Source: a virus
Reading direction: 5' to 3' (one strand)
Length of the DNA: 64,000 nt
Virus record (IMG/VR): IMGVR_UViG_3300021142_002226
Location: 126,178 to 190,177 of that record
Shown: positions 15,417-54,797 of the stretch, one piece after another
How positions within the stretch are numbered: position 1 is the stretch's first letter
Layout of the letters: each line of letters opens with the position of its first letter
Position numbers and translations under genes: made by a program
The notes under the pieces: model-generated
What the model saw: only the letters and a program-made list of their open reading frames with translations
Told to the model about the DNA's origin: nothing
Database searches by the model: none

Positions 15417-16658
15417 TTAAGTATTTGTATTATCGTCAGTAGTTGTGGAAGTATTAAATTTTGGTACACCAGTATTGGTTTGATTAGATGGGGCTTTTGA
15501 ATCAGGTTTTTTTTGTTTAGTCGGAGTTTTTTTAGCTACTTTTTTTGGAGCCGCTTTTGCTGGTACAACTTTTTTATTTTGATCAGCATTTTGACTTAAA
15601 ATATTTGTGTTATCTGTACCATTAGCATTAACGTTTGTAATATTATAACCTATATTCAAAGATTTTAATATATCTGTAAGGGCTTTAACACTTATTGTAT
15701 CTCCTTCTTGATTAGCCTTTTGTAACTCCTTCTGTGTTTGTTTCGCAACATCATTTTTTTGATTCGGATCGTTAGACTTTATAGCTTGATTAGCTTTATT
15801 AGCCAAAGATTGAACCTCTGGTTCTTGAGCAGATGGATTGTCAACCCCTTTTTCATCTGATGAAAGTGTTGCTTGAGCCCTTTTTATGATATTGAAAAAA
15901 TTATTTATATCATTCTGTAGTTTTTCTATCTGTTTAAATTCTTCGAACTCAGCACCATTTTTTTGAACATCAACATATAATTTGTTTAACTCAGAAACAA
16001 GCGGTATTAATTTATTCAACGTTGGCATAACCTTATTATTCAAATCTTTAGTAATTCTTTTGGCTATAGAACTCCATCTTTTACCATAAAAATTAAATGT
16101 ATAAGCATTTACACCAGTTTTGAAACCAGTTTTTAAACCCCAATCAGGTGTTCCAATATTTTGTAAAGGTTTTTGTCCTTTTGGTAACCAATATGTTGCA
16201 AGACCTTCATTGATATTGTTTAATCTGTTGATTAAATTTTCAGTTATATTGCTATAATCCTCATCTCCCTTATAATAATCTTCATTCATCCCCCAATCAG
16301 GACTATATCTATTGTACATCCATTCTCTTTCATTTGGATCTGGATAATCTCTTTCGAACCTATCCGCAAAATCATCATTGGATTTTATTCTATAGAAATC
16401 ACGTTCATCATCGCTACGATAATCTTCAGGGTCATCATCGTGATAATCCATATCATCATCGTGATAATCCATGTCATCGTGTTGTTCCTCTGGTTCTGGA
16501 TCTTCCTCCTCAAATTCCTCTAAAGGAATAATACCAAGATCAAGTTTATTACCAGAAAGAGCACCCTTAGCGTCAATATTAACTGATGGATCTAAAAATT
16601 CATTTAAACCCATTAGTTTTCTTTGCTTATTAAGTGATTCTAATAGTTCTTTTTTCAT
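15417..16658 (-). CDS. Leader-tagged hypothetical protein, probable internal head protein
   Basis: N-terminus MKKELLESLNKQRKLMGLNE; acidic DDMDYH repeats; Lys/Pro/Ala-rich tail. Confidence 0.65.
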   Translation of the reverse strand: MKKELLESLNKQRKLMGLNEFLDPSVNIDAKGALSGNKLDLGIIPLEEFEEEDPEPEEQHDDMDYHDDDMDYHDDDPEDYRSDDERDFYRIKSNDDFADRFERDYPDPNEREWMYNRYSPDWGMNEDYYKGDEDYSNITENLINRLNNINEGLATYWLPKGQKPLQNIGTPDWGLKTGFKTGVNAYTFNFYGKRWSSIAKRITKDLNNKVMPTLNKLIPLVSELNKLYVDVQKNGAEFEEFKQIEKLQNDINNFFNIIKRAQATLSSDEKGVDNPSAQEPEVQSLANKANQAIKSNDPNQKNDVAKQTQKELQKANQEGDTISVKALTDILKSLNIGYNITNVNANGTDNTNILSQNADQNKKVVPAKAAPKKVAKKTPTKQKKPDSKAPSNQTNTGVPKFNTSTTTDDNTNT

Positions 16659-16661
16659 ATA

Positions 16662-17405
16662 TTATACTGTTGTTGTTGCAGCTTTATTATTTTTTGCAGC
16701 ATTTCTTGCATTTAATTGACTTTGATTCAACGGTCTACCATTTTTATCAACTTCTGGAGCTGCTTGTGTTTCTGGAGCCTGTGTTGTTGATGCTTGAGTT
16801 TCTGGAGCTTGTGTTGTTGTAGACGTTCCAGTTTGGGTAGTTTGTCCGCTTTGAGCAGTCGCACCCTGAGCGTTAGATTGCGTTGCCGCTTCTTTATCAG
16901 CTTGTGCTGCTCCAGTTGCAGATGCTTGGCTCAATGATGTTACAAATTGTGACATTTGAGCTAAAGAATCTTTTTGAGCTTTCCATGTAGTACCCATGTT
17001 ACCAAATACTGTTGTCATTTGTTTAACGATTGGATCATTAGCACCTAATTGAGCTACTTGCTGTTGCATCGATTTAAGTTGATTAAATTGACCATCACTT
17101 TTGTTCACAAATTGAGTCATTTGTTGAATGGTTTTTTGCAATACTTTAATTTGGTTGTTAATCTTTCTCAATATTATGGCCTTTTTAGCACCTTGCATTG
17201 CACCACCAATAGCACCTTTAATAGCGGTATTTATACCAAAAATTTCATCCAACTCACCCTCTTCTTCGTCATGTTCACTTTCTTCCATTGGTTTAGAATA
17301 TTCAGCGTAGCCACCTTCCTTAAATTCGTAGCTCATTGTTTCGTTCAATCCCATTAGTTTTCTTTGTCTATCAAGGGATTCGTTTAATGATAATTTCTTT
17401 TCCAT
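16662..17405 (-). CDS. Leader-tagged hypothetical protein
   Basis: N-terminus MEKKLSLNESLDRQRKLMGLNE; Gln/Thr/Ala-rich with TQAPE repeats. Confidence 0.65.
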   Translation of the reverse strand: MEKKLSLNESLDRQRKLMGLNETMSYEFKEGGYAEYSKPMEESEHDEEEGELDEIFGINTAIKGAIGGAMQGAKKAIILRKINNQIKVLQKTIQQMTQFVNKSDGQFNQLKSMQQQVAQLGANDPIVKQMTTVFGNMGTTWKAQKDSLAQMSQFVTSLSQASATGAAQADKEAATQSNAQGATAQSGQTTQTGTSTTTQAPETQASTTQAPETQAAPEVDKNGRPLNQSQLNARNAAKNNKAATTTV

Positions 17406-18238
17406 TATATTTTATTTAACTTTTTTTTAATGTCTTTTATTATATTACTATAAATAGTCTGTTTTTCCTCATTAATCATCTTTTGGCTATCTTCCATTTC
17501 ACCAAATTTTACAAGTGAAAGATACACATCTTTACCATCTTCATCAAGATCATTATAACCTCTCAAAAGTGGACTTGGTTTGTACTTAAATTTGTATAAA
17601 ATAGATTCTAAATAGTGGATAAAAGGTATATCCTCATTATAATCATTAATATACACTCTTATTGCGTCAGATATATCGAATGCTAAACTTGCTTGATTTT
17701 CATAATTATCCAAACCAGCCATTTTAACTATTTTGGAAATTATAGGTACAGCCATGAAGTCTTTAACCCATGCGTAAGTGTTGTCTTCATTATCATCATC
17801 TCCTTCTACCTCAGAAAGATTTGCATCTTGTTGAGCCTCTTCTTTACCATTCAATTTATTCATAATCTGTTCCTTGTCCTTATCTGTTAACTTAGTAACA
17901 TCAACAGCGGATAAAACAGAATTAATTATATATTTATATTCTTTATTTGTTAGTTGTTGTGCAATCTCACGCATGTCTTGAGCAAGTTTTCCAGTTGTTT
18001 TTTGTATTTCATTAAATGTCATTTCCTCACCACCTTCAGTACCAGCACCCATATCAGGTGTTGTCATCGGAACTTCTGGGGCAGCTGACGCATTTGGGTC
18101 GGCCATAGGTTGAGGTTGTTGTGAAAAATCAACAGCACCAACATCAGGTGTCGGTGCCGTCATATCTGGTTGAGGGATTGCTTCTTGAGTAGGTTGTACA
18201 GGAATAGATGCTTGTGCAGGTTGTTTAACCTTGATCAC
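17405..18238 (-). CDS. Hypothetical Pro/Gln-rich protein
   Basis: 277-aa ORF translationally coupled to neighbours. Confidence 0.6.
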   Translation of the reverse strand: MIKVKQPAQASIPVQPTQEAIPQPDMTAPTPDVGAVDFSQQPQPMADPNASAAPEVPMTTPDMGAGTEGGEEMTFNEIQKTTGKLAQDMREIAQQLTNKEYKYIINSVLSAVDVTKLTDKDKEQIMNKLNGKEEAQQDANLSEVEGDDDNEDNTYAWVKDFMAVPIISKIVKMAGLDNYENQASLAFDISDAIRVYINDYNEDIPFIHYLESILYKFKYKPSPLLRGYNDLDEDGKDVYLSLVKFGEMEDSQKMINEEKQTIYSNIIKDIKKKLNKI

Positions 18239-18249
18239 AAAACGTTCAT

Positions 18250-18606
18250 CTATACTACTTTTTTTTTTAAAATATCAACCTGTTGAGCGTGTTCATTCAA
18301 TTCGTTGATTTCTTTAAACATCAAATTTAGATGTTTAAGAGCATCAGCAGTTGTTTTATATGAGAATTCTTTAATGTTATTAACACCACTCATATACTCA
18401 TATGATTCGTTAATTTTTTTCTTGATATAAACATATTTGTTCTCTTGAACAATAGCATATTCATCACCATTAGAAGCTGTAGCTTCATGGATGATGGTTG
18501 AACTAACATCATTTTTGTTAGAACTTTCAGTGATGCCAGCAATTTGCTTAATTCTTGCTAATTTATCATCAACATTTTGAATTTTTTCTGAACCAATTGG
18601 TCTCAT
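18250..18606 (-). CDS. Hypothetical protein with a weak leader-like helix
   Basis: DDKLARIKQIAGITES near N-terminus; TATTTAT motif upstream. Confidence 0.6.
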   Translation of the reverse strand: MRPIGSEKIQNVDDKLARIKQIAGITESSNKNDVSSTIIHEATASNGDEYAIVQENKYVYIKKKINESYEYMSGVNNIKEFSYKTTADALKHLNLMFKEINELNEHAQQVDILKKKVV

Positions 18607-18661
18607 ATATAATTAATTTAATATAAATAGTCTTATTCTTATTATAAATAGTTTATAAATA

Positions 18662-20123: not shown

Positions 20124-20124
20124 A

Positions 20125-37042: not shown

Positions 37043-37087
37043 GTTCTTTTGATTTAATATAAATATTTATAAATAAATTAAAAGTTT

Positions 37088-38613: not shown

Positions 38614-39912
38614 ATGGCTAATAAAAAGGGACTCAATGAAGAGTTATTAAAAATAAAAAAATATATGCGTCTTCTTGAGAACTATGAAATTCCAGGTGAA
38701 GATGATACCAACGAATTTACTGGTGCTGTACAATACCCTGTATATGAAGAAGAAGATGAAAATGAGGAAGTAATCCCATCAGCATATGATGAAAACAAAG
38801 TTTCAGAATATTTTGATGAAACTGGTGCAAGCACACCATATGGTGAAGACACTGGAGTTATAACACCAGAATTTGTTGAAGAAGCGCCAAGAAGTAAATC
38901 GTTTACTAAAGACATATATCATAAAACTTTAAGGGCAGCTCTTGAAAAAGCTGAGGAATACGCTGCTAAAAAGGGTTACACGATTGATCCTGAAGAAATG
39001 TTTAGACTTTTCGGAACTGGTGGAGTTTCATACGAAACAACTAAAAAAGGAAGTTTGACTTTATATAAAGACGGTGTACCTCAAAAAAAGATGCTACATA
39101 TTCAAATATATAGAATGCCTTCTGGTAATTATGAATTAAATGATTATATCAATGAAAAACATTTATCAACACCAGAAGAACATGATGAATATGAAGAGCA
39201 ACTCGGTTTCCAAAAATTAATCAACCTTATAAATTCTGAGAATCCAGAATTGGATTTGATTAAAAAAACATTGTATAGTAATGGACTATATATGAAACTT
39301 TTAAAACTTAAGTCTGGAAAAAAACTTGACGATAAAAATGAAGTTTTAAAAGGTCTTGAAAATATCGTACTTAAAATGGAAAATCCTGAGTATGAACATA
39401 TTAAGGATGAAATATTACATTTGGTTGATGAATTAATGGATCCTCAATTGGCTGAAACATCATGCGGTTGTGATGAAATGTATGAATCAATCAAAACAAT
39501 TTCCAAAGCAAGTCTTATAACTGAAGCTATTGTAGAATCAGAAAAATTACCAACATTTGATAAATTAATCTCAATACTATTACATTCAGATCCACAAGTT
39601 CAAATATTCCACAGACAAACAAAATCATACTCAGAACATAAAGCTTTGAATGAATATTATGATGAAATAGTTGATCTTATAGATGGATTAATAGAATCTT
39701 GGCAAGGAACCCATGGATTGATCAAAAAATATAAAAATTTTGAATATATGGAATATGTGGATAATAAAGCCACAATAGCTTATTTCACAGAACTATATGA
39801 CATTATCCAAAAATTGAGACAAGATATTGAAGAGTCCTGGATCCAAAATCAAATTGATAACGTTTGCGAACTTATCTCAACAACAATATATAAATTAACA
39901 TATCTTAAATAA
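38614..39912 (+). CDS. Leader-tagged multidomain protein with a C-terminal ferritin/Dps-like helical domain
   Basis: MANKKGLNEELLKIKKYMRLLE; C-terminal FHRQTKSYSEHKALNEYYDEIVDLIDGLIE..QG. Confidence 0.6.
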   Translation: MANKKGLNEELLKIKKYMRLLENYEIPGEDDTNEFTGAVQYPVYEEEDENEEVIPSAYDENKVSEYFDETGASTPYGEDTGVITPEFVEEAPRSKSFTKDIYHKTLRAALEKAEEYAAKKGYTIDPEEMFRLFGTGGVSYETTKKGSLTLYKDGVPQKKMLHIQIYRMPSGNYELNDYINEKHLSTPEEHDEYEEQLGFQKLINLINSENPELDLIKKTLYSNGLYMKLLKLKSGKKLDDKNEVLKGLENIVLKMENPEYEHIKDEILHLVDELMDPQLAETSCGCDEMYESIKTISKASLITEAIVESEKLPTFDKLISILLHSDPQVQIFHRQTKSYSEHKALNEYYDEIVDLIDGLIESWQGTHGLIKKYKNFEYMEYVDNKATIAYFTELYDIIQKLRQDIEESWIQNQIDNVCELISTTIYKLTYLK

Positions 39913-39917: not shown

Positions 39918-41393
39918 ATGAAAAAAAATATATTAAATGAACAAGTCTCAAGAATGAGAGCAATGATGGGACTTAACGAATTTTTCTCAATGCCAACTGG
40001 TGAATCAGCTGAGTCTGGTGCAATCCAAGAAGATGAAAAAGCAAAATATGCTAAAACAATTGCTATGATTGATAAAATTGGTTCAAGACCTGTTGCCATG
40101 AAAATGGTTGATGGTTATTTGTCAAAAATGATTGGATTAACAGCTTCTGATTTAGCAGATACTGCAACTTATGCTAATGGTTTGGATTCAATCGAAGAAC
40201 TTTTAGATGATGAAAAATATTCACAAGCTTATGCTGAAGCAAAGGAAACTGCAAAAGCTATGATAGAAGATGAAGGTTTTGGTGGTATGTTTGACGAAGA
40301 ACTAAAAGGTAAACAACATAAAATTGACGCTAACCACAATGGTAAGATAGACGCTGACGACTTTAAATTATTACGCAAAGACGAAGCTCTTCATGGTGAT
40401 CAAGATAAAATCGATGCTAACCATAACGGTAAAATAGATGCTGACGATTTCAAAATGCTACGTAAGCAAAAATGCAATGAATGCGGTGTTGGTTACATGG
40501 AAGAAGGTAAATGTGATGAATGTGGTTATATGGAAGAAGGTTTTAATATAGCTGATTTATTAGCAGGGGACGGACCTAAATATGACAATAGTGGTGGTGG
40601 ATTACCAGATGTTAATCATGAAGTAATCAAAAATATTATAAATGTTATTGAAAAAAGACATAGAATGGGTAAAGGTGGGGTAACACCAGCCGATGTTTAC
40701 GAAATGTTAAATAATGATGAAGAATTACCAAATAACACAACAATAGAACTTTTATTGAAAAAATTGGCTGAAAAAGGATTATTGTTTTATGGCCAGAATA
40801 ACAAAAATAAAATTGATCCAAAAGATGCCTCAAAATATGTTAATACTGACCTTTCAGGTAAATCATCTTTCCACAATGTTGCAACTGATAAAAGAATACC
40901 AGAACCTAATATGAACGAATCATATATAATGGAAAAGAAAGATATCATCAAGAAATTCCAACAACAATATGGTAAAAAGAAAGGTGAAAAAATTTATTAC
41001 GCAACAGCAAATAAACAAGATAGAAACCCAGAAACATTCAAACAAAAAGATGAAGAAAGTGTTAATGAGCTTTTAGACTTTAGTTGGGACAATGTAACGA
41101 CTAATAGCAATAATTCAGATAGCTTCAACAACAAAGATCGTTTTAACACTACAACATATAATCAAAAAGATGATGATAGCGAAGATGATGATAGCGAAAA
41201 TGTGAACGAAAAAAAATGGATAAAAACTGATTCAAACAAAAAAGGTATGTTCAAAGGTAGAAGTTTAGATTCATTGAAAGCTGAATTAGAAAAACTAAAG
41301 AAAACTACTAATAAGACAGAAGCTCTTAAGAAAAAAGAACACGAATTAATGTTCGCAATTAGAGCAAAAAAAGGACACGGTTTTGAAAACTAA
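39918..41393 (+). CDS. Leader-tagged mosaic protein with two EF-hand-like repeats
   Basis: MKKNILNEQVSRMRAMMGLNE; KIDANHNGKIDADDFK twice; CxxC pairs. Confidence 0.65.
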   Translation: MKKNILNEQVSRMRAMMGLNEFFSMPTGESAESGAIQEDEKAKYAKTIAMIDKIGSRPVAMKMVDGYLSKMIGLTASDLADTATYANGLDSIEELLDDEKYSQAYAEAKETAKAMIEDEGFGGMFDEELKGKQHKIDANHNGKIDADDFKLLRKDEALHGDQDKIDANHNGKIDADDFKMLRKQKCNECGVGYMEEGKCDECGYMEEGFNIADLLAGDGPKYDNSGGGLPDVNHEVIKNIINVIEKRHRMGKGGVTPADVYEMLNNDEELPNNTTIELLLKKLAEKGLLFYGQNNKNKIDPKDASKYVNTDLSGKSSFHNVATDKRIPEPNMNESYIMEKKDIIKKFQQQYGKKKGEKIYYATANKQDRNPETFKQKDEESVNELLDFSWDNVTTNSNNSDSFNNKDRFNTTTYNQKDDDSEDDDSENVNEKKWIKTDSNKKGMFKGRSLDSLKAELEKLKKTTNKTEALKKKEHELMFAIRAKKGHGFEN

Positions 41394-41748: not shown

Positions 41749-42419
41749 ACCAAGTCAAACAAAATTACTTCCGACTCAACATCACTGGCAATTATATCAA
41801 GTGATTCCTCCCCCACAAAACTTAAACCATCCCCTTCAACTAAAGAAACATTATTAATTATAATGTTACCTGATATTACATATAAATAATATCTACGTTC
41901 CACATTCAATTGATATTGATAATCTTGATTAAATATACCTGCCAATAATCTTGCATCTTGTTTTATAGGTAACTTAGCTGTGATGTCGCAAAATTGATTA
42001 AGTTTTTCTTCTCTTGTAAATTGATACCATTCATGTATCGGTTCAGTATCAAAAACATTAGGTCTAATCCATAACTGAAGATAACGATTTGGTTTATCTG
42101 AAGCGTTTCCCTCTGTGTGTTTAATACCACTTCCTGTACTCATTCTTTGCACAGCTCCAGCAGGTATATCTAATATATTACCATGACTGTCTGTGTGTCT
42201 ACAAACCCCTTCAACAACATAACCAAAGATTTCCATATTCCTATGTTCATGTATTGGCACATGACCACCAGGTTGTACCCTATCATCGTTGATGGTTTGT
42301 AAATGACTAAAATTCATATATCTTGCATCATAATATGATGGAAATGAAAAAGTTCTATATGAATTAATCCAATCAGCTCTCGGATTACCCCTTGTATGTG
42401 CTGGTCTATGTGTTATCAT
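41745..42419 (-). CDS. Pirin-family protein (YhhW-like)
   Basis: TFSF..YYD...F..L..INDD, H.H.NMEI, VQRMS.G.GI.H.E, LQLWI. Confidence 0.92.
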   Translation of the reverse strand: MITHRPAHTRGNPRADWINSYRTFSFPSYYDARYMNFSHLQTINDDRVQPGGHVPIHEHRNMEIFGYVVEGVCRHTDSHGNILDIPAGAVQRMSTGSGIKHTEGNASDKPNRYLQLWIRPNVFDTEPIHEWYQFTREEKLNQFCDITAKLPIKQDARLLAGIFNQDYQYQLNVERRYYLYVISGNIIINNVSLVEGDGLSFVGEESLDIIASDVESEVILFDLV

Positions 42420-42430
42420 AATATCTTAAA

Positions 42431-43966: not shown

Positions 43967-43969
43967 ATA

Positions 43970-44305
43970 TTAGTATTTAAATTTATAACCTTTTAACCCA
44001 GACGTAACAGAACTTCCAGATGTTCCAGCTGTACCAGCGGTACCTGAAGTACCTGATGAACCACTTACATAATAAATATCATATTCGATACCAGTAACAA
44101 ACTGAATAATTTCATTGTTTTTCATTTCATCATTACCAATATAAATTATTTCTTTGGAAACAGTGAGTTTTGATTCTGGTAACTTCGATTTAATTAAAGC
44201 TTTAAGATCCGTTACATTCAATGCGGCATTACTATCATAATTACACAATGCTCTGCTTTTTAAATCACCATCAATGATGATTCTTGTATCTATATTATAT
44301 ATCAT
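43970..44305 (-). CDS. Hypothetical protein with SGTSGTAG repeats
   Basis: 111 aa; Ser/Gly/Thr repeat near C-terminus. Confidence 0.55.
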   Translation of the reverse strand: MIYNIDTRIIIDGDLKSRALCNYDSNAALNVTDLKALIKSKLPESKLTVSKEIIYIGNDEMKNNEIIQFVTGIEYDIYYVSGSSGTSGTAGTAGTSGSSVTSGLKGYKFKY

Positions 44306-44327
44306 ATTTTATATTTTATATTTTTAA

Positions 44328-46595
44328 TTAACACCACCAAGTTATTATATCATTAATCGTTCTATCAATACTATTATTGTAGCTAACAGATTTTACATCT
44401 GTAGGTGACATCATATATAATGTATACGTACCATCAACATGACCCATCTCAACTAATGAAGTATTTTTAGAAACAGTCTGCCTATTTATATTGTCACTTC
44501 CAGGTACACTTAATGTTTGCAGAACATTACCATTAAAGTCATATAAAACTATACCGTAATTTTCAATATTCTGAGCATAAATAAATTGAAAAAAGTTAAT
44601 ACCTAAATTTAAATCAAATCCAGCAACATAGTCTGAAGGAAAATTAAATTCACCACTTATACCAGTTTGATTTATCACGTTAAAAACACCCCTTGTTGTG
44701 TTTATTAATACAATGCGTCCAGATGTTTTATAAGTATCATCAACATAATTAGTATTAGTATTTTGGGCATAGTCATAATAATTAATATCTGTAAAGACAT
44801 TACTATCATTAAAATATTTATTCTGTGTTTTATAAGTATTATCATTTTTAACATATAAAACATTATAGTCATGTTCAAAACTAAGATTTACATTTGAGCC
44901 AGTATCACCAGTAAATGTGAAAGAATCAATTGTTGTACCACTACTATTTAACACATGAACTGTTTCATTGTATAATGTGTTACTATATCTATCATTTTGT
45001 AAAAAAGGTGCTACTAAAAATTTATCACCAAAAACATCTGAATATGAATTGTCAATAGATGATGCTGAACCAATAGACTCAAAATAATTTGTACCATCAT
45101 TTTTAAATGTCAATATACCATAACTACCATCCATTTTAACCTCAAGAAATATTGCCGCACCTTTAAAGACTTCTTTTAAACCACGAGTTTTTGTTCCAGA
45201 TGTTTGATTTGTAGCAAAACTATATGTTACTGGAGTATTATCTTCTGTAAAGAATATAAAATCTTGATTAGTAAAATAATTATAACCATAGTCTTCATAA
45301 TCGCTTGAATTACTATTAAACGACACCAAAGCCATTTCATGTTTGTAATAATCAACACCGTAGTTATTTCTTGACCAAAAATTAATATTTACATAATCAA
45401 CACCCCTTGGATGTGTTAAATTATGGGATATATTTGTTGCTGAGTTATATGTATAAATACCATAATCCACATTTACATCACTACCATTGTGGAATATCAT
45501 GTGCATCTTATTGGAACCAAAGAAATTAAAAGTATACGCCGTATAATCAAACCCAGTCAAATCATGAACAGCCAATCTTGGTACTGCCAAAGTAGGGTCT
45601 AAAATACACAACTCAATATACTTATTTGTTGAATTACTATATACCCATTCTACAATAAAATCTGATGAAACTGTTGTAGCGTATGTAACATTAAAATCAC
45701 TTGAATTCCAAGTCAGCAAAGAAGCTGATAATGAACCATCAAAACTATTAATAATGTATGTATCATTATTATTTGTATTAGAATTATTAACCTGAAGTAA
45801 AGCATAATTATCTGATGTTGTAGAATCATACCACCATAAAATACTAACACTTTGGTAGCTCGGATCATAATTATATTGGTAATTATTTATACCATTAAAA
45901 TAATTAAAAACACCGTTTGTTTCATCATTGAAAACAAGCCATTTACCATCATAATCATTAAGATACCAATTGGTTGATACCGATGTTGTATAATCTCCTA
46001 TAATACTTCCATTATCATTTATGAACTGTACTTTTTTATACCCATTACTGTTGTCATAGTAATTTGCAGCATAACCAAAATCAGTTGTTGGAAATAAAAC
46101 AGCTTCAGACCAAACTGTGGCATCTATTCCACTATCGATTAATGTTGCCGTATTTGTTGTATAATTTAAAACAGCATAAAAATAGTTATTGGAGTAACTA
46201 ACGTTCACAATATAAACCCATGTTTTATTACCTGTGGGTTTTAAAAAATAATATTGTGTGCTACTATTTACCCAACCAATCGCTTCAGCGGCAATCGTGA
46301 AAGGTGTCATTCCTCTTCTACCAGGTAATCCGTTTATAATCTTTAATAAATTAACATCACTTTTATCATTTGTTTGCCAAAAAATAGGTCTTGCCGATGA
46401 CATATCACCTAAACCAACATCGTATGTATTAGAATAAATTACATATTGACTACTTGGATCCAATGAATTATACCATTTTAACCCCCCTAAATTACTACCG
46501 AAATCACCAGTTGATAAGCCAACTTCATTAAGACCTCTTTTTTCCCCAAATGTTGTCTGGACTCCGTTATTAAATGTAACTGGTTTTGTGCTCAT
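44328..46595 (-). CDS. Large beta-rich structural protein (fibre or spike-like)
   Basis: 755 aa, rich in Asn/Tyr/Ser/Thr; N-terminal module shared with the LamG proteins. Confidence 0.6.
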   Translation of the reverse strand: MSTKPVTFNNGVQTTFGEKRGLNEVGLSTGDFGSNLGGLKWYNSLDPSSQYVIYSNTYDVGLGDMSSARPIFWQTNDKSDVNLLKIINGLPGRRGMTPFTIAAEAIGWVNSSTQYYFLKPTGNKTWVYIVNVSYSNNYFYAVLNYTTNTATLIDSGIDATVWSEAVLFPTTDFGYAANYYDNSNGYKKVQFINDNGSIIGDYTTSVSTNWYLNDYDGKWLVFNDETNGVFNYFNGINNYQYNYDPSYQSVSILWWYDSTTSDNYALLQVNNSNTNNNDTYIINSFDGSLSASLLTWNSSDFNVTYATTVSSDFIVEWVYSNSTNKYIELCILDPTLAVPRLAVHDLTGFDYTAYTFNFFGSNKMHMIFHNGSDVNVDYGIYTYNSATNISHNLTHPRGVDYVNINFWSRNNYGVDYYKHEMALVSFNSNSSDYEDYGYNYFTNQDFIFFTEDNTPVTYSFATNQTSGTKTRGLKEVFKGAAIFLEVKMDGSYGILTFKNDGTNYFESIGSASSIDNSYSDVFGDKFLVAPFLQNDRYSNTLYNETVHVLNSSGTTIDSFTFTGDTGSNVNLSFEHDYNVLYVKNDNTYKTQNKYFNDSNVFTDINYYDYAQNTNTNYVDDTYKTSGRIVLINTTRGVFNVINQTGISGEFNFPSDYVAGFDLNLGINFFQFIYAQNIENYGIVLYDFNGNVLQTLSVPGSDNINRQTVSKNTSLVEMGHVDGTYTLYMMSPTDVKSVSYNNSIDRTINDIITWWC

Positions 46596-46622
46596 TTTCT
46601 TGTTTGTTTTATATAAATAGTT

Positions 46623-47207
46623 TTATTTCTTATCATTTATCTTCTCTGAAGTATATTTAATACCCATTATTGTACCAATAATACTAAATGAGTTAGTTAA
46701 CAATATACCAAACATATTACTCCAAGACGACTCCAATATTTTTGTATCATAATGATTAACCATAGCAAATAAATATAGACCAGTCGTAATCAAACCAACA
46801 CCTATTATTACCATCAAAGCGCTTTTAACAATCTTACCAATTAATTCAAACTGAGTTCTTTTCTGCAAACTATCTAAATCCTCAACAGCAACATCCCTCA
46901 ATTTCTCAGCCTCAAGCCTTGCTTTCTTAGATTCCTCAAGAGCATCTTGCAACTCATCCATTAATTTATTATTCTCATTCTGAGCCCTCGTTAATTCATT
47001 GTTACGTTGCTGAATTTGCTTAGTTATATCCAAACGCTTTTTTCTGGTTTCTTTATCAAGCTTATTAGCCGTTTCTAAATATTCAGTAAACTCTTTATCC
47101 TCTGGATCCTCTTCAACAACCTTCAATAAATTACCCTCCAAATATAATCTTTTGGTTTCTGCTAATTCAATCAGTTGGTCTTTAATTTCTTTGCAAAATT
47201 TAATCAT
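46623..47207 (-). CDS. Coiled-coil membrane protein, last gene of the signalling operon
   Basis: Long coiled coil plus two C-terminal hydrophobic helices; start overlaps the response regulator stop. Confidence 0.65.
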   Translation of the reverse strand: MIKFCKEIKDQLIELAETKRLYLEGNLLKVVEEDPEDKEFTEYLETANKLDKETRKKRLDITKQIQQRNNELTRAQNENNKLMDELQDALEESKKARLEAEKLRDVAVEDLDSLQKRTQFELIGKIVKSALMVIIGVGLITTGLYLFAMVNHYDTKILESSWSNMFGILLTNSFSIIGTIMGIKYTSEKINDKK

Positions 47208-47650
47208 TATTTATATATCTTGAATGGTGCCGTTCTATTTTTATATTTTGGAAAATCCTTTTTAAATTCTTCCAATCTTGGCTCAATCTCATCAGATTTG
47301 ATAATCCAAAATTGAGCACCAGCTTTAACGGCTTTAGTTTGTTCATCAGTTTCGTTGCTTGATGATATAATACCAATAACAACATTATTTCCATGTTCAA
47401 AATTAATTCTTCTGATTAATTCAATACCATCGAATGATGAACCAATTATATTTAAATCAACAAAAACACACTCAGGTCTTTCATGTAGATTTTTATATTT
47501 TGTTTTAAACAATTTTTCAGCATCATCAGCGCTATTAATTGTTTCTAACGTAAGTGTTATATCAAGAAGACTACAAGCGTCCTCAAACACAAGATGAAAT
47601 AAATCTTCATCATCAACGAGTAAAATAGAATCTATAAACTTTTTTTCCAT
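47207..47650 (-). CDS. Single-domain response regulator (CheY-like receiver)
   Basis: ILLVDDE, VFVDLN (phosphoacceptor Asp), DGIELI, IISSS, GA..WIIK. Confidence 0.9.
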   Translation of the reverse strand: MEKKFIDSILLVDDEDLFHLVFEDACSLLDITLTLETINSADDAEKLFKTKYKNLHERPECVFVDLNIIGSSFDGIELIRRINFEHGNNVVIGIISSSNETDEQTKAVKAGAQFWIIKSDEIEPRLEEFKKDFPKYKNRTAPFKIYK

Positions 47651-47653
47651 AAA

Positions 47654-48178
47654 TTAAATTTCAATCATTTGAACATTAAGTAATAATTTAATCTCATCCC
47701 CAACTAACGCATTACCCTTACCACTTAATACATTAAACATTAACCCAAAATCATTACGACTTATTTTACCTGATAACTCAAAACCATGTTTTATCTGACC
47801 ATACGGATCGATATCACTACCATTATAAACACCATTTAAGATTACAGATTTGGTTGTATCCTTAATGGTTAATTCACCAGTAATCACATAACCAGAATCA
47901 CCTGTTTTTGTGATATTTGTTGATACAAAACTAACTTTCGGATATTGACTAACATTGAAAAAATCTTCAGTTTTTAAATGCGCATCTCTGTCAGAAATGT
48001 TAGTTGATATCGAATCAACATCAGCATCAAAAGTTATTTTAGCATCTGTGAAATCTTCACTTGAGGACTCCATTGTCGCATCAAATGACTTAAAATTCCC
48101 ATAAACGTTGGAAATCATTAAGTGTTTTACCTTAAACCCAATCTCGCTGTGCATTGGGTCGATTTTGTAATTTTTCAT
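47654..48178 (-). CDS. yceI: YceI-family lipid/isoprenoid-binding protein
   Basis: YKIDPMHSEIGFKVKHLMISNVYG.F, RDAHLK..DFF, GELTIKD.TK. Confidence 0.92.
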   Translation of the reverse strand: MKNYKIDPMHSEIGFKVKHLMISNVYGNFKSFDATMESSSEDFTDAKITFDADVDSISTNISDRDAHLKTEDFFNVSQYPKVSFVSTNITKTGDSGYVITGELTIKDTTKSVILNGVYNGSDIDPYGQIKHGFELSGKISRNDFGLMFNVLSGKGNALVGDEIKLLLNVQMIEI

Positions 48179-48185
48179 ATAATTT

Positions 48186-49949
48186 TTATTTAATCTTTAT
48201 TTTCATCAAAGTACCGCTTTCATTTTTTTCACACGATACCTCAAAACCATGCTCTTTCAATATTGCTATACAAATACTTAAACCTAAACCAGTACCAACC
48301 TCTTTTTGGTTACTTTTCCTGATATAAGGCTTAGATAAATGTTCAAATTCTTGTTGCGTCATACCCCTACCATTATCCTGAATACCAATATGCTCGTCAT
48401 CTAACATAAATATAGCGACCATTTTAAATTCACTATCATTATACTTCAAACCATTTCTAATCAAATTATCAATGGCTGTACAAAATAATGAGGGGTTTAC
48501 ATCAATCGTTGGTAAATAATCAATAGCCACCTGCTTAACATAAGCGGTGTTACTCAAATAATCATCCAATATTTTCTTCAAATCGCAAGACTCTTTTTCA
48601 AGAACCGTATCCTTCTTAACCAAATTCGTAAATTCATAAACCCCTTTATAAATTCTCTGAGTATGCTTCAAACCCTCTTTAATCATTTTCAACGGCGAAT
48701 CCAATTTATATTGTTTTATAATTTCAGGATTCAATCTCCTTTCCAATGATGAAATACCTCTTGGCATATAAGTATTAATACCACTATGCATATCATGACG
48801 CAAAATCTTTGCCGCATGTTCCAAATATGTATTCTTTTTTTCAATCTCAAATATACTCTTGATAAGTTCTGTTACATCATATCTTATTGAGGTATAACCA
48901 ATTAATTTTCCTGTAACATTATCAAAATCCGCTTTTATATATGAATCAACCCAATAAAGTTCACCATTTTTATTCTTATTAGTGATAATTTTATTCCAAA
49001 CCTTTTTTTCCTTCAATATGACGTTAAACATATCATTCCAAAAAGCTTTACTATGATCACCTGATTTGAAAAAACTATGATCCTTACCAATTATATCCTC
49101 ATAACCCCAACCAGAAACTTCCTGGAATTTCTTGTTAACATAAGTTATCTTACCAGATACATCTGATTTAGAAACCAAAACAGATCTGTCAATAAATTTC
49201 TCAAACTCAATTAAATCCTTAGCCGTCAAATTATTCTGATAAACAGCATAACCAAAAGAATATGTGGAAGTTAATAATTGGACAAAATCTATCTCCTCCT
49301 TCAACCACTCCCTATTATTATGATTCTCAAAACTTATCATACCAATAACATCACCCTTGAACCAAATAGGAACAATTACACAAGAATTAATTTTATTTCT
49401 TTGTATGTAATTTACAGAATGAATAACGTTATCCTTATTATTTTCAAGTAAAATATACGGATTAGACTTTAACTCCTCGAAAAATATCTTATTAGAACTC
49501 ACCAGTATTATATCATTAGTCCTAAAAGAATTTGTATTCTTAATGAAAATTTCATTGCAAACCATTTTCTTCTTTTGACCATCATATAACCAAACACCCA
49601 CTCTATCAATACCCAAACCATTACACGCAGACTGAGTCAATACCTTTGCAGCATTCAAAATATCACCCTCATAATATAAATCATTATTAATCTGATCAAC
49701 CAATAAAGTATTCAACTTGGACGTGTAATCCCTCGATTTCTTAATCTCATTAGAACGTGCCACCAACTCCCTCATCAAATAACAAAACATCGGCACAAAA
49801 AATACAAAACAACCCAACTCAACCCACTTAAAATATTGAAAAGTAGGAAAAAAATCAAAAATAACACTTACCTTCACAATCATAAAAATGAACATAAGTA
49901 TAGCACAACCAATAATTGCTGATCTCACTTTATTACACATATTACTCAT
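48186..49949 (-). CDS. Membrane sensor histidine kinase (TM-GAF-PAS-HisKA-HATPase; start revised)
   Basis: Two N-terminal TM helices; GAF (VGVWLY, IVPI..KG.VIG); PAS (DVSGKITYVN); LRHDMH (H-box), NLIRNG, DNGRG, GTGLGL. Confidence 0.9.
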   Translation of the reverse strand: MSNMCNKVRSAIIGCAILMFIFMIVKVSVIFDFFPTFQYFKWVELGCFVFFVPMFCYLMRELVARSNEIKKSRDYTSKLNTLLVDQINNDLYYEGDILNAAKVLTQSACNGLGIDRVGVWLYDGQKKKMVCNEIFIKNTNSFRTNDIILVSSNKIFFEELKSNPYILLENNKDNVIHSVNYIQRNKINSCVIVPIWFKGDVIGMISFENHNNREWLKEEIDFVQLLTSTYSFGYAVYQNNLTAKDLIEFEKFIDRSVLVSKSDVSGKITYVNKKFQEVSGWGYEDIIGKDHSFFKSGDHSKAFWNDMFNVILKEKKVWNKIITNKNKNGELYWVDSYIKADFDNVTGKLIGYTSIRYDVTELIKSIFEIEKKNTYLEHAAKILRHDMHSGINTYMPRGISSLERRLNPEIIKQYKLDSPLKMIKEGLKHTQRIYKGVYEFTNLVKKDTVLEKESCDLKKILDDYLSNTAYVKQVAIDYLPTIDVNPSLFCTAIDNLIRNGLKYNDSEFKMVAIFMLDDEHIGIQDNGRGMTQQEFEHLSKPYIRKSNQKEVGTGLGLSICIAILKEHGFEVSCEKNESGTLMKIKIK

Positions 49950-50044
49950 AATTATATTTGTTTTATATCGAACTTTAGTTAAGTTACCTATAAATACTTT
50001 AAAATATACCATTAAATTAAACTATTTATAAAAAATACATTTCC

Positions 50045-50518
50045 GTGCATTTAAACGAACAATTAAATAAAATTAAGTCAATGATGGGCATAAAACCATT
50101 AAATGAATACATTGACCCAAAAACGGTGCTTAACGACCAAAATTCCTTAGAATCAATATATTCTGGAAAAAGAAATGTTGGAACCATAGTTAAACATGGT
50201 GGTGTTAGAAATAAAAGCTGGGAAGAAACACTTAAAGATATCGAAAAACATGGCCTTAATTTGATGAAAGTTGAATCAAACCCATATGACCTTTATATTG
50301 TATATAAAAAATATGCGCATTTCCAAGCAAAAGAATTGCATGATATAGCTGAAAAAAATGAGGGCTACCTATCAGTAAACGCATCAATAGAAGATTCAGT
50401 CAGAATCGGTGAGTTGTTGGAATATAACCCAGAATCAATAAAACAATATATAATTAAGAACTACCCAGCAGAAGAAGTTCGAAAATATTATACAAATAAA
50501 AACAATTTTGATATATAA
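50045..50518 (+). CDS. Leader-tagged hypothetical protein
   Basis: MHLNEQLNKIKSMMGIKPLNE. Confidence 0.65.
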   Translation: MHLNEQLNKIKSMMGIKPLNEYIDPKTVLNDQNSLESIYSGKRNVGTIVKHGGVRNKSWEETLKDIEKHGLNLMKVESNPYDLYIVYKKYAHFQAKELHDIAEKNEGYLSVNASIEDSVRIGELLEYNPESIKQYIIKNYPAEEVRKYYTNKNNFDI

Positions 50519-51067
50519 TGAAATTGAACGAACAAATACATAGAATGAAATCAATGATGGGGTTAAATGAAGGTTTGGGTGGAGAATCATTCGAACAATA
50601 TTTTAAAAGGAGAATCCCTTTTTTGAAAGAATTTGTTGACCTATCAACAGATGACGAACATTTGAATTTTCAAAATACAACTGAAAATCAAAACGTTAAA
50701 ATCTATATACCGTCATCCGAACTAATTTATACACTACCACAATTTGATATTATAACACAATTCAAATTTAACAAAATGGGTGATAAATATGAATTAGCAT
50801 TTTATTTCAATTTTGATATAGAATACCCAAAAGATATGGATGAGCAATTCAAAAGAACCTTTGATGAACAAGCCAGTACTTTGGCTCAAATGAACTCTAT
50901 GGAATTTGATGATGCTCAAATCAGTCCAGAATTTATTAATTTTGTGATCAGGAAAATCAACGAAAACATTTTCAAAATGCCTGAATTGATTAATAAGTAT
51001 TTGATGATACCAGATATAAACACCCAACTTGATATATAATGAAATTGAACGAACAAATACATAGAAT
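50508..51067 (+). repeat. Identical 39-nt direct repeat (50508-50546 and 51029-51067) spanning stop/start junctions
   Basis: ttgatatataatgaaattgaacgaacaaatacatagaat. Confidence 0.95.
50518..51039 (+). CDS. Leader-tagged hypothetical protein
   Basis: MKLNEQIHRMKSMMGLNE. Confidence 0.65.
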   Translation: MKLNEQIHRMKSMMGLNEGLGGESFEQYFKRRIPFLKEFVDLSTDDEHLNFQNTTENQNVKIYIPSSELIYTLPQFDIITQFKFNKMGDKYELAFYFNFDIEYPKDMDEQFKRTFDEQASTLAQMNSMEFDDAQISPEFINFVIRKINENIFKMPELINKYLMIPDINTQLDI

Positions 51068-51893
51068 TAAAGAAATGATGGGCTTACAACCCATTAATGA
51101 ATACGTCACACAAAATGATGTTTATCTCCGTGATTATTTTAATATGTCAGACGAACAAAAAAAATCTGGTCTCCCTTATGAATACTCATTTCTATTTGAT
51201 GATTTCCTTGTGGAAAACGATATAGTGTTTGAAAAACCAACGCATTCATTCATCAGTACTGACGGTGAAGAACCTGGAGACACATACGAAGATTACGAAA
51301 TAGTTGAATGGCTAAACCAACATAAAAAACCATTATTTGATCAATTTGCTACTTATCTATACAATAGAGTCAATGATCACACCCTACCAGTATCTGATGC
51401 CGAATACCCAGCCTGGTCATTCTTTAGCTCCGCAACATTAATCAAAAACCAATGGCTCATCCATTTTACCAATGATCCATGGGGCATCGCAAAGAACGGT
51501 TTCACCAAAGGCGTTTCAGAAATTGAAAAACTCGGACTCACAACATATCTTGGAGAATTCGAGAAAAAATACGGAGGTTACAATTTTGCATTTAGAGCGA
51601 ATATATATAACAGATACGCAAAAGGTAGCCACGGATACAAATACGGTGAAGAAGCCGTGATGTTCATTGGTTCAGGCATGGAAATGCACCACTATGGTGA
51701 CGAAGAACCACAAGTCATCTTCTGGGGCAAAAAAGCTAAAAACATAGTGCCGATAACAAAAGAATACGGTGACGATTATGCTGTACATAACCTAAAGAAG
51801 GGTGGTATAGTTTATAAAAGCCAAGATCTCGATGACGTGGTTTCTTGGGTTATGAGAAATTACCAACAATACCAAAATAGATTACATTATTAA
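51039..51893 (+). CDS. Leader-tagged protein, possible ADP-ribosyltransferase-like fold
   Basis: MKLNEQIHRIKEMMGLQPINE; LIHFT...IAKNGF...YNFAF...GDEEPQVIF. Confidence 0.5.
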   Translation: MKLNEQIHRIKEMMGLQPINEYVTQNDVYLRDYFNMSDEQKKSGLPYEYSFLFDDFLVENDIVFEKPTHSFISTDGEEPGDTYEDYEIVEWLNQHKKPLFDQFATYLYNRVNDHTLPVSDAEYPAWSFFSSATLIKNQWLIHFTNDPWGIAKNGFTKGVSEIEKLGLTTYLGEFEKKYGGYNFAFRANIYNRYAKGSHGYKYGEEAVMFIGSGMEMHHYGDEEPQVIFWGKKAKNIVPITKEYGDDYAVHNLKKGGIVYKSQDLDDVVSWVMRNYQQYQNRLHY

Positions 51894-51908
51894 AAAAAAG
51901 AAATAATA

Positions 51909-53093
51909 ATGAACTTACACGAACAAATACATAGGATTAAAGAAATGATGGGTTTGAAAGAATCCAATTATGATGGCAAAACCTTGATTAATGTCGATAT
52001 TCAACCAGAATATAAAAACTATCTTTCATTCGACCCAAATGATTGGGTTGAAATGTTAAATAATCATAGAGGTAAAATTGTATTCCTATATAATGGAGAA
52101 GACACACTTGGAATGATCAATTTACACGATTACCAATATTGGTTATTAGATCATGGTGTTGATGAACATGTGATAGAAAACGCAACCTTCTATGATAAAG
52201 GTTACGCTTTCTTTAGATATTGTATAGACGAAAAAATTGAAGAAAAACAAATTATAGATCTAATAAAATTCATGATCGAAAAAGATGTGAACGATTCACG
52301 TGATTTGAATGAAGAATTTTGGGACGAATTCATATCAAATTATTCACATGACGATATCAGAAAACTTCTCGAAATGAGCGATGATTGTATCAATATACCA
52401 GATCTTATGGATTTCCTAAAAAATTATAACAATATTGTTATTTGCGGCGGAGGTGCAAACGAATGCCTGAAAGAAGTTGAAATAGCACTACACGCACTCG
52501 GAAAATCATTTGACACATATCATGATTTTGTATATGAAAAAAACTATATAAACGAAGAAGAAATTCAAATAGAAAAAGACTCTAACCTAAATACAGTAAA
52601 CGAAAACGTATCACAAATCACATCAGGCGAAGCGGTATGGAACCATATCGTATCAATCACACCAGATGAAGAAGATATACCATGGGGTTTCGAAAAAATC
52701 ATCAAACAAAACTCATTCATCCCAATAGATGACTTTGACCTAAGATCACTGCTTACAACAGACCCAGATTTCAAACAATTCTATGAACATAACAAAGATA
52801 ATGAATATTTTAGATACGACCCATCAGAAGTTAATAGCAATGAATTAGACCAAGAAATTGTTGTCGTAAACGGAGAACTACTTGACGGTTACTCAAGAGC
52901 AGCAACAAAACTTGCAAACGGTGAAACAAAAACAAACGCATTCGTTGCATCAAAAGGAACCATCAAAATAGATGAAAAAGTAACAAAAAATGAAATCATC
53001 TGCGATAAATGTGGATGGAAATGGAAAAAGGAAGACGGAGGAAAAGATCTATATATCTGCCACAAATGTAACCACAACAACAAACCTAAGTAA
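51909..53093 (+). CDS. Leader-tagged mosaic protein: cysteine-hydrolase (isochorismatase/nicotinamidase-like) domain, ParB-like segment, zinc ribbon
   Basis: LINVDIQP...IVICGGGANECL; LLDGYSR; CDKC...CHKC. Confidence 0.55.
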   Translation: MNLHEQIHRIKEMMGLKESNYDGKTLINVDIQPEYKNYLSFDPNDWVEMLNNHRGKIVFLYNGEDTLGMINLHDYQYWLLDHGVDEHVIENATFYDKGYAFFRYCIDEKIEEKQIIDLIKFMIEKDVNDSRDLNEEFWDEFISNYSHDDIRKLLEMSDDCINIPDLMDFLKNYNNIVICGGGANECLKEVEIALHALGKSFDTYHDFVYEKNYINEEEIQIEKDSNLNTVNENVSQITSGEAVWNHIVSITPDEEDIPWGFEKIIKQNSFIPIDDFDLRSLLTTDPDFKQFYEHNKDNEYFRYDPSEVNSNELDQEIVVVNGELLDGYSRAATKLANGETKTNAFVASKGTIKIDEKVTKNEIICDKCGWKWKKEDGGKDLYICHKCNHNNKPK

Positions 53094-53166: not shown

Positions 53167-53483
53167 TTATTTTATATGAATTATGCTCGGATTATATATA
53201 ATATAATGCTTTATGGGCTCATTATACCTACCACCCTTCGGATTTTCAGTCAATAATTTCCTCGGAGTTATCACAGCCTCATAAACATGCTCACCATAAT
53301 GCTGAGCATTCTCCCTCGATGAACTGAAATATATGCCAGGCCCCCCAAGATCCTCAGCATCCCTGCCACCAACAAAATCATCCACAAATGAACTTATCTT
53401 GGTATTGGAACCATGATACACAGTTATCGAACCAATACCCTCATGGATTTCATTCTGGAAATCTGTTCATTTAAATTTTTCAT
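53167..53483 (-). pseudogene. Frameshifted leader-tagged ART-like gene
   Basis: MKNLNEQISRMKSM, then a 1-nt deletion (atg a[t]g ggt), then GIGSITVYHGS...GPGIYFS...A..YG..VYE. Confidence 0.7.
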
Positions 53484-54061
53484 ATGTTATTTGACTTTAT
53501 ATTAATTAATGTCTTCTTTCTTTTTGGATCCTCATTATATCCGTCAATTAACTCCTCAGCAATATTCCATAACTTATACCAAACCTGAGCAGCATCATAC
53601 ATATCTGAAGATAAATAATATAAACTATTTCTATATTTTGAAATTTCATCAATCACCTTATTATCATAACCATACTTCTCATGAAAAGTATCAATCTTAT
53701 CTTGATAATATTCCTCTCGTGCATTATAATAATCATTCGCCTTCTCAAGCTCCCTTTCCTTCTGCTTTGCCATATCAATATTTTTAACAATATCATCTAA
53801 CACAGCACCAGCCATCAATTTAGTTGCCTCAATGTCAATATACTTCTTGGCCTTGGCATAATCATCCATGACCTCACTCAAAACCTTACCAATCTCATCA
53901 TTAACACTTGGAACCTGGTCATCAGGAACTTCCTCAGCATATGGAATATCCTCATCCGTCTCAGCAACCATTGGAACATCTGGCTCCAAATCACTGTACC
54001 CAGATTCACCTAAACCCATCATCGATTTCATCTTTGAAATCTGTTCATTAAGATTTTTCAT
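53480..54061 (-). CDS. Leader-tagged hypothetical helical protein (start revised)
   Basis: MKNLNEQISKMKSMMGLGE. Confidence 0.65.
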   Translation of the reverse strand: MKNLNEQISKMKSMMGLGESGYSDLEPDVPMVAETDEDIPYAEEVPDDQVPSVNDEIGKVLSEVMDDYAKAKKYIDIEATKLMAGAVLDDIVKNIDMAKQKERELEKANDYYNAREEYYQDKIDTFHEKYGYDNKVIDEISKYRNSLYYLSSDMYDAAQVWYKLWNIAEELIDGYNEDPKRKKTLINIKSNNI

Positions 54062-54173
54062 ACGCCTTCTTAAGCTCACTTAATATTCTTTGATTCTCAG
54101 AAAGCCTCTTGATATTCTTCAAAACATTCTTTCTAACCTTTAATTTATGCAATTGCTTCTTTCTCCTTGCCAT
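54048..54173 (-). CDS. Small basic peptide (41 aa, not in the ORF track)
   Basis: MARRKKQLHKLKVRKNVLKNIKRLSENQRILSELKKAYEKS*; TATTTAT upstream. Confidence 0.5.
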   Translation of the reverse strand: MARRKKQLHKLKVRKNVLKNIKRLSENQRILSELKKAYEKS

Positions 54174-54275
54174 ATTAGTACATTTATATTATACATAAAT
54201 AGTTATAAAATTAATAAAATTATTGCACCTTTCAAAATCCCAATTTTCCAAAAAAATATCTATTTATATTTACAT

Positions 54276-54797
54276 ATGGCACTCAACGAACAAATAAATA
54301 GAATCAAAGAAATGATGGGCTTGAATAATCGATATGAATACAAAATAGTATCCTATGAAGAATTTGAAGACAAATTATTAGATATCACAACACTAAATTT
54401 GGAAGATGATCAAGTAAGAATACCACAATTTGATCAAAATAAAGATTATCACCTACTCAATATAAATGATGTTGACCTATATATCAGAAATAGAAAACAA
54501 CTCCCAGAAAGCGGTTCCTACGAATTATTTATCTCTAATATCGATGGCGATGATATAGGGTTTATCCGTGGTACAAAATTAAACAACATACTTTCATTTA
54601 ATCTCATTTATATCACCCCAGAACACAGAGGCGAAGGTATAGGAACTGAAATATATGAATATTTCCTAAATCATGGATATATAATCAAATCTGACTCAGA
54701 AATCACTGATAGTACATATAGCATCTACACAAAACTCGCAAAGTCAATTTATAAACCAATTATATTTAATGACGGTAGAGTAGGATTAACCAAATAA
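54276..54797 (+). CDS. Leader-tagged GNAT acetyltransferase (start revised)
   Basis: MALNEQINRIKEMMGL; IYITPEHRGEGIGTEIY (GNAT motif A). Confidence 0.7.
   Translation: MALNEQINRIKEMMGLNNRYEYKIVSYEEFEDKLLDITTLNLEDDQVRIPQFDQNKDYHLLNINDVDLYIRNRKQLPESGSYELFISNIDGDDIGFIRGTKLNNILSFNLIYITPEHRGEGIGTEIYEYFLNHGYIIKSDSEITDSTYSIYTKLAKSIYKPIIFNDGRVGLTK

Follow-up and report, generated by a model that had tools for sequence, protein, structure and literature searches.

Background

The capsid targeting sequence (CTS) of the internal proteins of bacteriophage T4 was reportedly treated by Mullaney and Black in 1996. In T4, the CTS is carried by IPI, IPII, IPIII and Alt and is removed by the prohead protease gp21 (reviewed in PMC9026906, PMC3012670 and PMC5694885); gp21 cuts after L/I-x-E, the internal proteins bear N-terminal CTSs of 10-20 residues that are afterwards removed, and gp23 sheds a propeptide of 65 residues (PMC9026906, PMC5694885). 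Here we describe a 16-residue leader at the N-termini of unrelated proteins of a large, uncultured, T4-like phage, and argue that it is probably a capsid-targeting, protease-removed propeptide of the T4 CTS kind. The stretch analysed (hereafter the window) is the final 64 kb of the 190,177-bp IMG/VR record IMGVR_UViG_3300021142_002226, which has 30.5% G+C and is estimated to be approximately 64% complete.

A precedent for a mimic of a scaffold tail is CpmB of SaPI1, which copies the C-terminal capsid-binding motif (RIIK) of the phage 80alpha scaffolding protein, and whose binding at the scaffold's site on the capsid protein was shown by cryo-EM and genetics (PMC5644958). There, as here, a second protein shares a motif with the C-terminal end of the scaffold; CpmB, however, is the size-redirecting scaffold of a satellite and bears its motif at the C-terminus, whereas the leader sits at the N-terminus of many of the phage's own cargo proteins and is a mimic predicted from sequence comparison. 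The polyvalent proteins of phages and conjugative elements are proposed to be effectors delivered with DNA (Iyer et al. 2017, PMC5512222). They have the domains ART-PolyVal/DUF3990, GNAT, NUDIX and ParB_N and the proposed role in common with the leader-bearing proteins, but unite between two and fifteen dissimilar effector domains in a single chain, whereas here the domains are mostly encoded by separate small genes, each tagged, and only some relatives string two or three modules together by means of internal leaders. In the giant phages phiKZ, 201phi2-1 and SPN3US, head-internal and ejection proteins are cut after x-x-E by a gp21-related protease, and paralogous head proteins share conserved N-termini (PMC5694885, PMC10052503). 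Their propeptides mostly exceed 100 residues and do not constitute a single portable tag; mass spectrometry has demonstrated that they are cleaved, whereas cleavage of the leader is predicted. Encapsulin cargo-loading peptides are short terminal peptides on unrelated cargo, including ferritin-like proteins, and bind inside an HK97-fold shell; they differ from the leader in motif, are usually C-terminal, are not removed by a protease, and take part in neither DNA packaging nor injection.

A shared leader on unrelated proteins

Leader copies were sought with a regular expression and two profile hidden Markov models (HMMs), one built from the window copies and one from 116 database proteins; the HMM scan covered 2,423 six-frame open reading frames (ORFs) from the entire genome (190,177 bp). 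At the start of nine intact genes, and of one more that is frameshifted, stands L-N-E-Q-[IV]-x-[RK]-[IM]-K-x-M-M-G-L-N-E, or, in the looser form that describes the window copies, L-N-E-Q-[IVL]-x-[RK]-[IMQ]-[KR]-x-[ML]-M-G-[LI], mostly followed by x-E. The nine intact copies (ORF starts 16658(-), 17405(-), 39918(+), 50045(+, GTG), 50518(+), 51039(+), 51909(+), 54061(-) and 54276(+)) score 15.7-38.6 bits, against 12.4 bits for the best non-copy in the whole genome; in all nine the leader begins 2-7 residues past the start codon, and the profile scan placed none of them in the remaining 126 kb of the genome. The bodies that follow the window leaders have no mutual BLAST similarity at E<0.05. The central observation of the first-pass annotation, a common N-terminal leader on unrelated proteins, is thereby borne out. 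The copies, ordered by score where the HMM is significant, are:

50518..51039, plus strand: best copy (38.6 bits), leader MKLNEQIHRMKSMMGLNE at 50518-50571; no Pfam or PHROG family found for the body
39918..41393, plus strand: leader MKKNILNEQVSRMRAMMGLNE at 39918-39980 (35.0 bits); body with an EF-hand pair (Pfam)
51039..51893, plus strand: leader MKLNEQIHRIKEMMGLQPINE at 51039-51101 (33.6 bits); body without a family
51909..53093, plus strand: leader MNLHEQIHRIKEMMGLKE at 51909-51962 (31.8 bits); 394-residue body with a zinc-ribbon-like C-terminal end
54276..54797, plus strand: leader MALNEQINRIKEMMGLNNRYE at 54276-54338 (31.7 bits); GNAT acetyltransferase body (PF13508/PF00583)
53480..54061, minus strand: leader MKNLNEQISKMKSMMGLGE at 54005-54061 (31.6 bits); acidic, helical body
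50045..50518, plus strand: leader VHLNEQLNKIKSMMGIKPLNE at 50045-50107, GTG start (30.6 bits); homologue P0012
16662..17405, minus strand: leader MEKKLSLNESLDRQRKLMGLNE at 17340-17405 (23.3 bits); Q/T/A-rich low-complexity body, cargo or core gene
15417..16658, minus strand: leader MKKELLESLNKQRKLMGLNE at 16599-16658 (15.7 bits); acidic low-complexity body, cargo or core gene; homologue P0113
53167..53483, minus strand: frameshifted leader MKNLNEQISRMKSM, a real copy, then a frame break; probably a pseudogene
38614..39912, plus strand: probable divergent leader MANKKGLNEELLKIKKYMRLLE at 38614-38679 (HMM 5.7 bits, E 2)

The copy at 53483 had been annotated as frameshifted, and indeed its frame breaks within the M-M-G codons and is followed by an 84-residue ART-PolyVal fragment (53167-53421; PF18760, E 4.5e-7). 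The start at 38614, listed at first pass among the ordinary copies, is better described as divergent: it is not significant by HMM, yet ranks ninth of 56,287 windows when scored with a position matrix. The body labels first given from the letters are upheld by Pfam and PHROGs for GNAT, EF-hand, ART-PolyVal and the DUF5856/Dps-like C-terminal domain of 38614..39912 (PF19174, 7e-20; phrog_858), the other bodies being without a family; the label cysteine-hydrolase-like for 51909..53093 gained no confirmation, as its AF2 model is poor (pLDDT 55.6) and Foldseek returned no fold match at E<=0.001. The family-less body of 51039..51893, also poorly modelled by AF2 (pLDDT 43.5), is kept in relatives P0004, P0008, P0009 and P0011 at 69-80% identity, and P0023, the homologue of the GNAT protein 54276..54797, begins at the leader.

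Synonymous codons vary among the nine intact copies (five different ones encode L1, all four encode G13 and three encode L14) while the amino acids are retained, and thus constraint acts on the peptide rather than on DNA or RNA. Two [LI]-x-E motifs flank the leader helix, as the first reading of the sequence described. The second lies at most six residues after M-M-G in eight of the nine intact copies; in the two copies with M-G-[LI]-x-P, an [LI]-N-E follows three residues further on.

A weaker copy proposed at 18606 was rejected: its score is -1.5, and two related phages retain homologues of the protein in which the M-G-L-x-E half is missing. The N-terminus of the 18606 protein is conserved. 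In two relatives, G001 and G007, the protein is joined to the following ORF, so that a single uninterrupted gene corresponds to ORFs 18250-18606(-) and 17405-18238(-), which a stop or a change of frame separates here. Outside the window, a GP88-family protein (genome 95945-97048) is a weak candidate for an N-terminal leader.

Distribution and modularity of the leader

Scanning of this genome and related viruses with a leader HMM, as had been proposed at first pass, extends the leader well beyond one phage. Among 5.8 billion proteins, a profile search seeded by words matched 154; among 1.84 billion cluster representatives searched exhaustively with HMMER, 104 reached E<=0.001, which is a lower bound for so short a profile; the match begins by residue 12 in 95 of these 104. 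The consensus of 116 retrieved proteins is L-N-E-Q-[IV]-S-R-[IM]-K-S-M-M-G-L-N-E (LNEQISRIKSMMGLNE), with the core beginning at residue 2-7 in 111 of them, N15 present in 91 and E16 in 101, and conservation collapsing past E16. The bodies of the same 116 proteins fall into at least 50 BLAST clusters, and a Pfam scan of 133 tagged proteins recognized NUDIX, GNAT, DUF3990/ART-PolyVal, Acb1, ParB_N, 2H phosphoesterase, EF-hand and PG_binding domains, most proteins having no domain. A degenerate DNA pattern matches 19 IMG/VR contigs, with one to eight leader genes each, and has no match in 185,579 prokaryote genomes (596 Gb). The complete 321-kb relative G001 has approximately 11 copies. The leader is conserved across phages whose capsid proteins are approximately 52-77% identical, and the cargo set differs between related phages. 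A literature search for the leader motif string found no paper.

P0055, a widespread tagged protein (188 aa, 209 member sequences), matches Pfam Acb1, an anti-CBASS phosphodiesterase (E 1.3e-7), which suggests a counter-defence enzyme pre-loaded in virions.

Several database proteins contain internal leaders, exactly where the stand-alone tagged protein of another phage would start. P0122 consists of a NUDIX module, then a leader and a P0012-like body, then a leader and a P0060-like body, and P0126 fuses homologues of window genes 50045 and 51039; such multi-module database proteins may be artefacts of gene calling. The DNA of G001 contains an intact ORF with both an N-terminal and an internal leader. 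All leader genes of the window are single-module.

Resemblance of the leader to the scaffold tail and to the predicted capsid cut site

The window contains a T4-type head module in the gene order of T4 (gp20-gp21-gp22-gp23 type), including the gp21-like protease that had been recognized at first pass:

4595-7402, plus strand: portal, 935 codons
8658-9599, plus strand: AAA ATPase, between portal and protease
10344-11066, plus strand: S77 prohead protease of the T4 gp21 family (PF03420 Peptidase_S77, E 1.9e-18), the presumed leader-removing enzyme
11508-12707, plus strand: acidic scaffolding protein of 399 residues, with the position and composition of T4 gp22 and in synteny with T4
12744-14480, plus strand: major capsid protein, gp23 family (PF07068, E 1.8e-72)

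After the portal come two small genes, the AAA ATPase, a homing endonuclease and then the S77 protease; a gene of 95 residues separates the protease from the scaffold. Relatives of the capsid protein are encoded on at least 591 IMG/VR contigs, and the nearest cultured phage is Flavobacterium phage vB_FspM_immuto, with a capsid protein approximately 40% identical. The host probably belongs to the Bacteroidota.

The leader probably ends at a site for the head protease. Residues 57-60 of this phage's capsid protein (M-L-N-E, 12912-12923), within W-M-L-N-E↓S, align with the site at which T4 gp23 is matured, F-L-T-E↓A (↓, cut site; predicted for this phage). All 80 of the relatives fetched have [LI]-N-E at this site, and N59 and E60 are invariant in an alignment of 36 capsid sequences. 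The leader end G-L-N-E carries the same tripeptide as this capsid site, which homology to the T4 site and the alignment predict to be the point of maturation. Head proteins have a slightly raised density of [LI]-N-E per protein, too small a difference to decide the matter.

The leader also resembles the C-terminal tail of the scaffold. The last 20 residues of the scaffolding protein (approximately 12645-12704, after S-I-N-E↓S) hold N-P-Q-V-E-R-M-K-D-L-I-N-K-I-Q, matching leader positions 2-13. This tail is conserved in 79 loci as [LI]-x-E↓[ST]-K-x-Y-E-N-P-Q-F-x-R-M-K-D-L-M-x-K-I-K and in the subclade of this phage as L-N-E↓S-T-x-Y-x-N-P-Q-[LIV]-S-R-[IM]-L-D-I-I-G-K-I-K. A gapless profile-profile match of the tail to leader positions 2-13 (N2, Q4, R7, [IM]8, K9, M12 and G/S13) scores 12.2 bits; column-shuffled tails score -6.5 +/- 4.3 bits and reach the observed value in 1 of 5000 shuffles. 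When matrices of the helix core were run over the genome, the scaffold tail ranked 14th of 57,112 windows, after the leaders and a few leader-like helices. A complex prediction for the capsid protein (36-row alignment) and the leader (17-row alignment) returned a score of 0.00, which counts neither way.

The scaffold tail of immuto (L003:8850-8939) ends in SEQVSRWQKLAGIIK and is, by eye, nearer to the leader NEQVSRIKSMMGLNE than is the tail of this phage; immuto has this leader-like scaffold tail, yet no tagged genes were found in it by profile and tail searches. Three proteins end in a leader-like helix: window 36602-37042(-), genome 104593-105069(+) and genome 14109-15806(-), with the C-termini SLNEEINKIKKLF, LMEQINKIKKIIYLID and LNEKIDRQIERMRKLF, respectively, and no Pfam family in any. 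Like the scaffold tail, they may represent the tag in a C-terminal form.

A possible route of cargo into the head

These observations suggest a scheme in which cargo would be made late in infection with the N-terminal helix L-N-E-Q-[IV]-x-R-[IM]-K-x-M-M-G-L; the helix would mimic the final 15 or so residues of the scaffold (N-P-Q-F/V-x-R-M-K-D-L-M-x-K-I) and thereby dock at the site of the scaffold tail in the prohead, which might be the capsid inner face or propeptide, or the scaffold core; the S77 protease would cut after [LI]-N-E, at M-L-N-E↓S in the capsid protein, [LI]-N-E↓S-T in the scaffold and G-L-N-E↓x in the cargo, removing propeptide, tail and leader, respectively; the cut just upstream of the tail would detach the tail from the scaffold, as the cut after the leader would detach the cargo and free it inside the head; and the cargo, if so released, would probably exit together with the DNA when the next cell is infected. 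This cargo would comprise acetyltransferase, ADP-ribosyltransferase, NUDIX, ParB-like, Acb1-like, EF-hand and Dps-like proteins and many family-less bodies. The individual steps differ in strength. Whereas the function as a protease-removed targeting propeptide is probable, action through the scaffold's own docking site has a little less than an even chance, and injection of the cargo is about evenly balanced; the domains ART-PolyVal, GNAT, NUDIX, ParB_N and Acb1 are of types predicted or known to be injected (PMC5512222).

Comparison with T4 is consistent with this scheme in several respects: the leader, like the CTS, is a short N-terminal propeptide, by prediction, on otherwise unrelated proteins and has an [L/I]-x-E end; the head module is of the same type; and the cargo includes an ADP-ribosyltransferase and likely counter-defence proteins, in a set that varies among related phages. 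The leader differs from the CTS in being approximately twice as long, with a 16-residue near-invariant core across a wide uncultured clade; in its 10-11 copies per genome, on more than 50 body families, versus four copies in T4; and in its resemblance to the C-terminal tail of the scaffold and its occurrence as an internal joint. The analogy with T4 drawn at first pass therefore holds for position, cleavage motif, head module, cargo types and portability, and does not extend to sequence. Most likely, the leader represents a capsid targeting sequence of T4 type in a new form, one that imitates the scaffold and has no sequence kinship to the T4 original.

Several points weigh against this interpretation. 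Packaging and cleavage, and with them the parallel to the T4 system, are predictions from sequence. No sequence similarity links the leader to the T4 CTS (MKTYQEFIAE), and its HMM gave no match to the N-termini of T4's internal proteins and only sub-0-bit matches elsewhere in IPII and IPIII. The similarity between leader and scaffold tail is real but modest, because a plain leader HMM misses the tail; it spans approximately 11 positions, and other windows score alike. The copy at 54276 has no [LI]-x-E directly after M-G-L, and the helix, which had been called amphipathic, is not unusually so in a hydrophobic-moment test. No cultured phage carrying the tag was found by tblastn with a 24-residue leader, a query so short that sensitivity is low. 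Many capsid relatives are without a strong leader, but their contigs are fragments, 5-47% complete; the capsid gene is present on only 2 of the 19 leader-bearing fragments, and leader and head module are seen together in only four genomes (G000, G001, G007 and G025), those long enough for the comparison.

We hold tentatively, at rather less than even chances, that a clade of uncultured T4-like phages loads its heads by means of one portable address that copies the docking tail of the scaffold. If so, any gene that gains these 16 codons would become virion cargo, and the leader would double as a cut-here joint in multi-module proteins. The full injected arsenal, including the anti-CBASS Acb1-like protein, ART, NUDIX and dozens of family-less bodies, could be read from sequence, giving a list of what a large group of T4-like phages, aquatic and uncultured, injects before gene expression. 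A function is known for only a minority of the more than 50 body families, and the others would be candidate host-takeover or counter-defence factors if the tag works. Imitation of the scaffold tail would also provide a testable way for a CTS to find the prohead, which is unclear even for T4, and the leader would offer another natural, well-conserved tag, the second, by which foreign proteins could be loaded into phage heads.

Alternative explanations

The alternative that survives best, although it is unlikely, is that the tagged proteins are packaged mainly as material of the prohead core or inner body rather than as injected effectors, with the leader serving as a signal for core assembly and clearance. 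The bodies of the two copies nearest to the head genes (15417-17405) resemble the scaffold in their acidic, Q/T/A-rich, low-complexity composition, and gp21 of T4 processes the core proteins gp67 and gp68 as well. Most bodies, however, are folded enzyme-like or binding domains (GNAT, ART, NUDIX, Acb1, ParB_N and EF-hand), and they differ from phage to phage as structural parts of a core would not be expected to. The core reading is possible for the two low-complexity proteins beside the head genes.

Slightly less likely still is an interaction helix for a partner outside the prohead, either an AAA+ machine of the phage or a host chaperone, that would control folding, timing or degradation. AAA+ proteases usually pick their substrates by short terminal tags, and this phage encodes a ClpC/Lon-like gene (28410-30680), of a kind also present in two other leader-bearing genomes, as well as the AAA ATPase of the head module (8658-9599). 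Neither the match to the scaffold tail nor the identity of the leader end with the capsid cut site would be explained by such a partner. For the AAA ATPase of the head module, a connection with the leader was dismissed, as the two are not correlated: the gene occurs in G001 and also in G003, of which a 141-kb fragment has no visible leader, and is missing from leader-bearing G007 and from immuto.

It is very improbable that the conserved stretch is a module at the level of DNA or RNA, either a recombination site for swapping of cassettes or an element of translation initiation. The leader does mark the borders of cassettes, with fusions and swaps falling exactly there, and common stretches of 48 nt could favour recombination; the freedom of synonymous positions under kept amino acids largely refutes this explanation, and the peptide is retained both across the range of capsid divergence given above and in internal in-frame copies. 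Least probable of all is a secretion or membrane-targeting signal for export from the cytoplasm, for although the leader is N-terminal and looks removable, its consensus has no hydrophobic core (at least seven residues after a basic n-region), is charged or polar at 9 of 16 positions and contains no twin-arginine or lipobox, and the leader is in no cellular genome among the prokaryotes searched.

A candidate late promoter element

The leader operons 38614, 50045, 54276 and 17405 are preceded, 15-51 nt upstream, by the motif TATTTATA (22 nt upstream of 50045, which heads the operon 50045-53093, and 28 nt upstream of 38614). It also precedes the genes of the scaffold, baseplate wedge, tail tube, tape-measure-like protein and head-tail adaptor and some homing endonucleases, at 18-28 nt from the start codons of structural and homing endonuclease genes. 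Sites in the window are at 11460, 18629-18661, 19425, 37064-37075, 38586, 46619, 50023 and 54261, with many more in the rest of the genome; the total count is at chance level and only the placement is notable. TATTTATA looks like a late promoter element, and synthesis of the cargo at the time of head assembly would follow from this. That leader operons have it in common with scaffold and tail genes speaks for a function of the leader in the head.

Other genes of the window

The portal gene has an HNH-endonuclease-like segment (residues approximately 177-285) ahead of the portal domain, with the look of an intein, and the protease and AAA genes of G001 likewise seem to hold inserts. Between the helicase region and the first leader operon, 37088-37669(+) encodes a glycoside hydrolase of family 19 (chitinase/lysozyme-like), a likely endolysin. 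A two-component-like gene set occupies 41745-50012 on the minus strand:

41745-42419, minus strand: pirin
47207-47650, minus strand: receiver-domain protein
47654-48178, minus strand: YceI-like protein
48186-50012, minus strand: GAF-PAS-HATPase histidine kinase with N-terminal membrane segments

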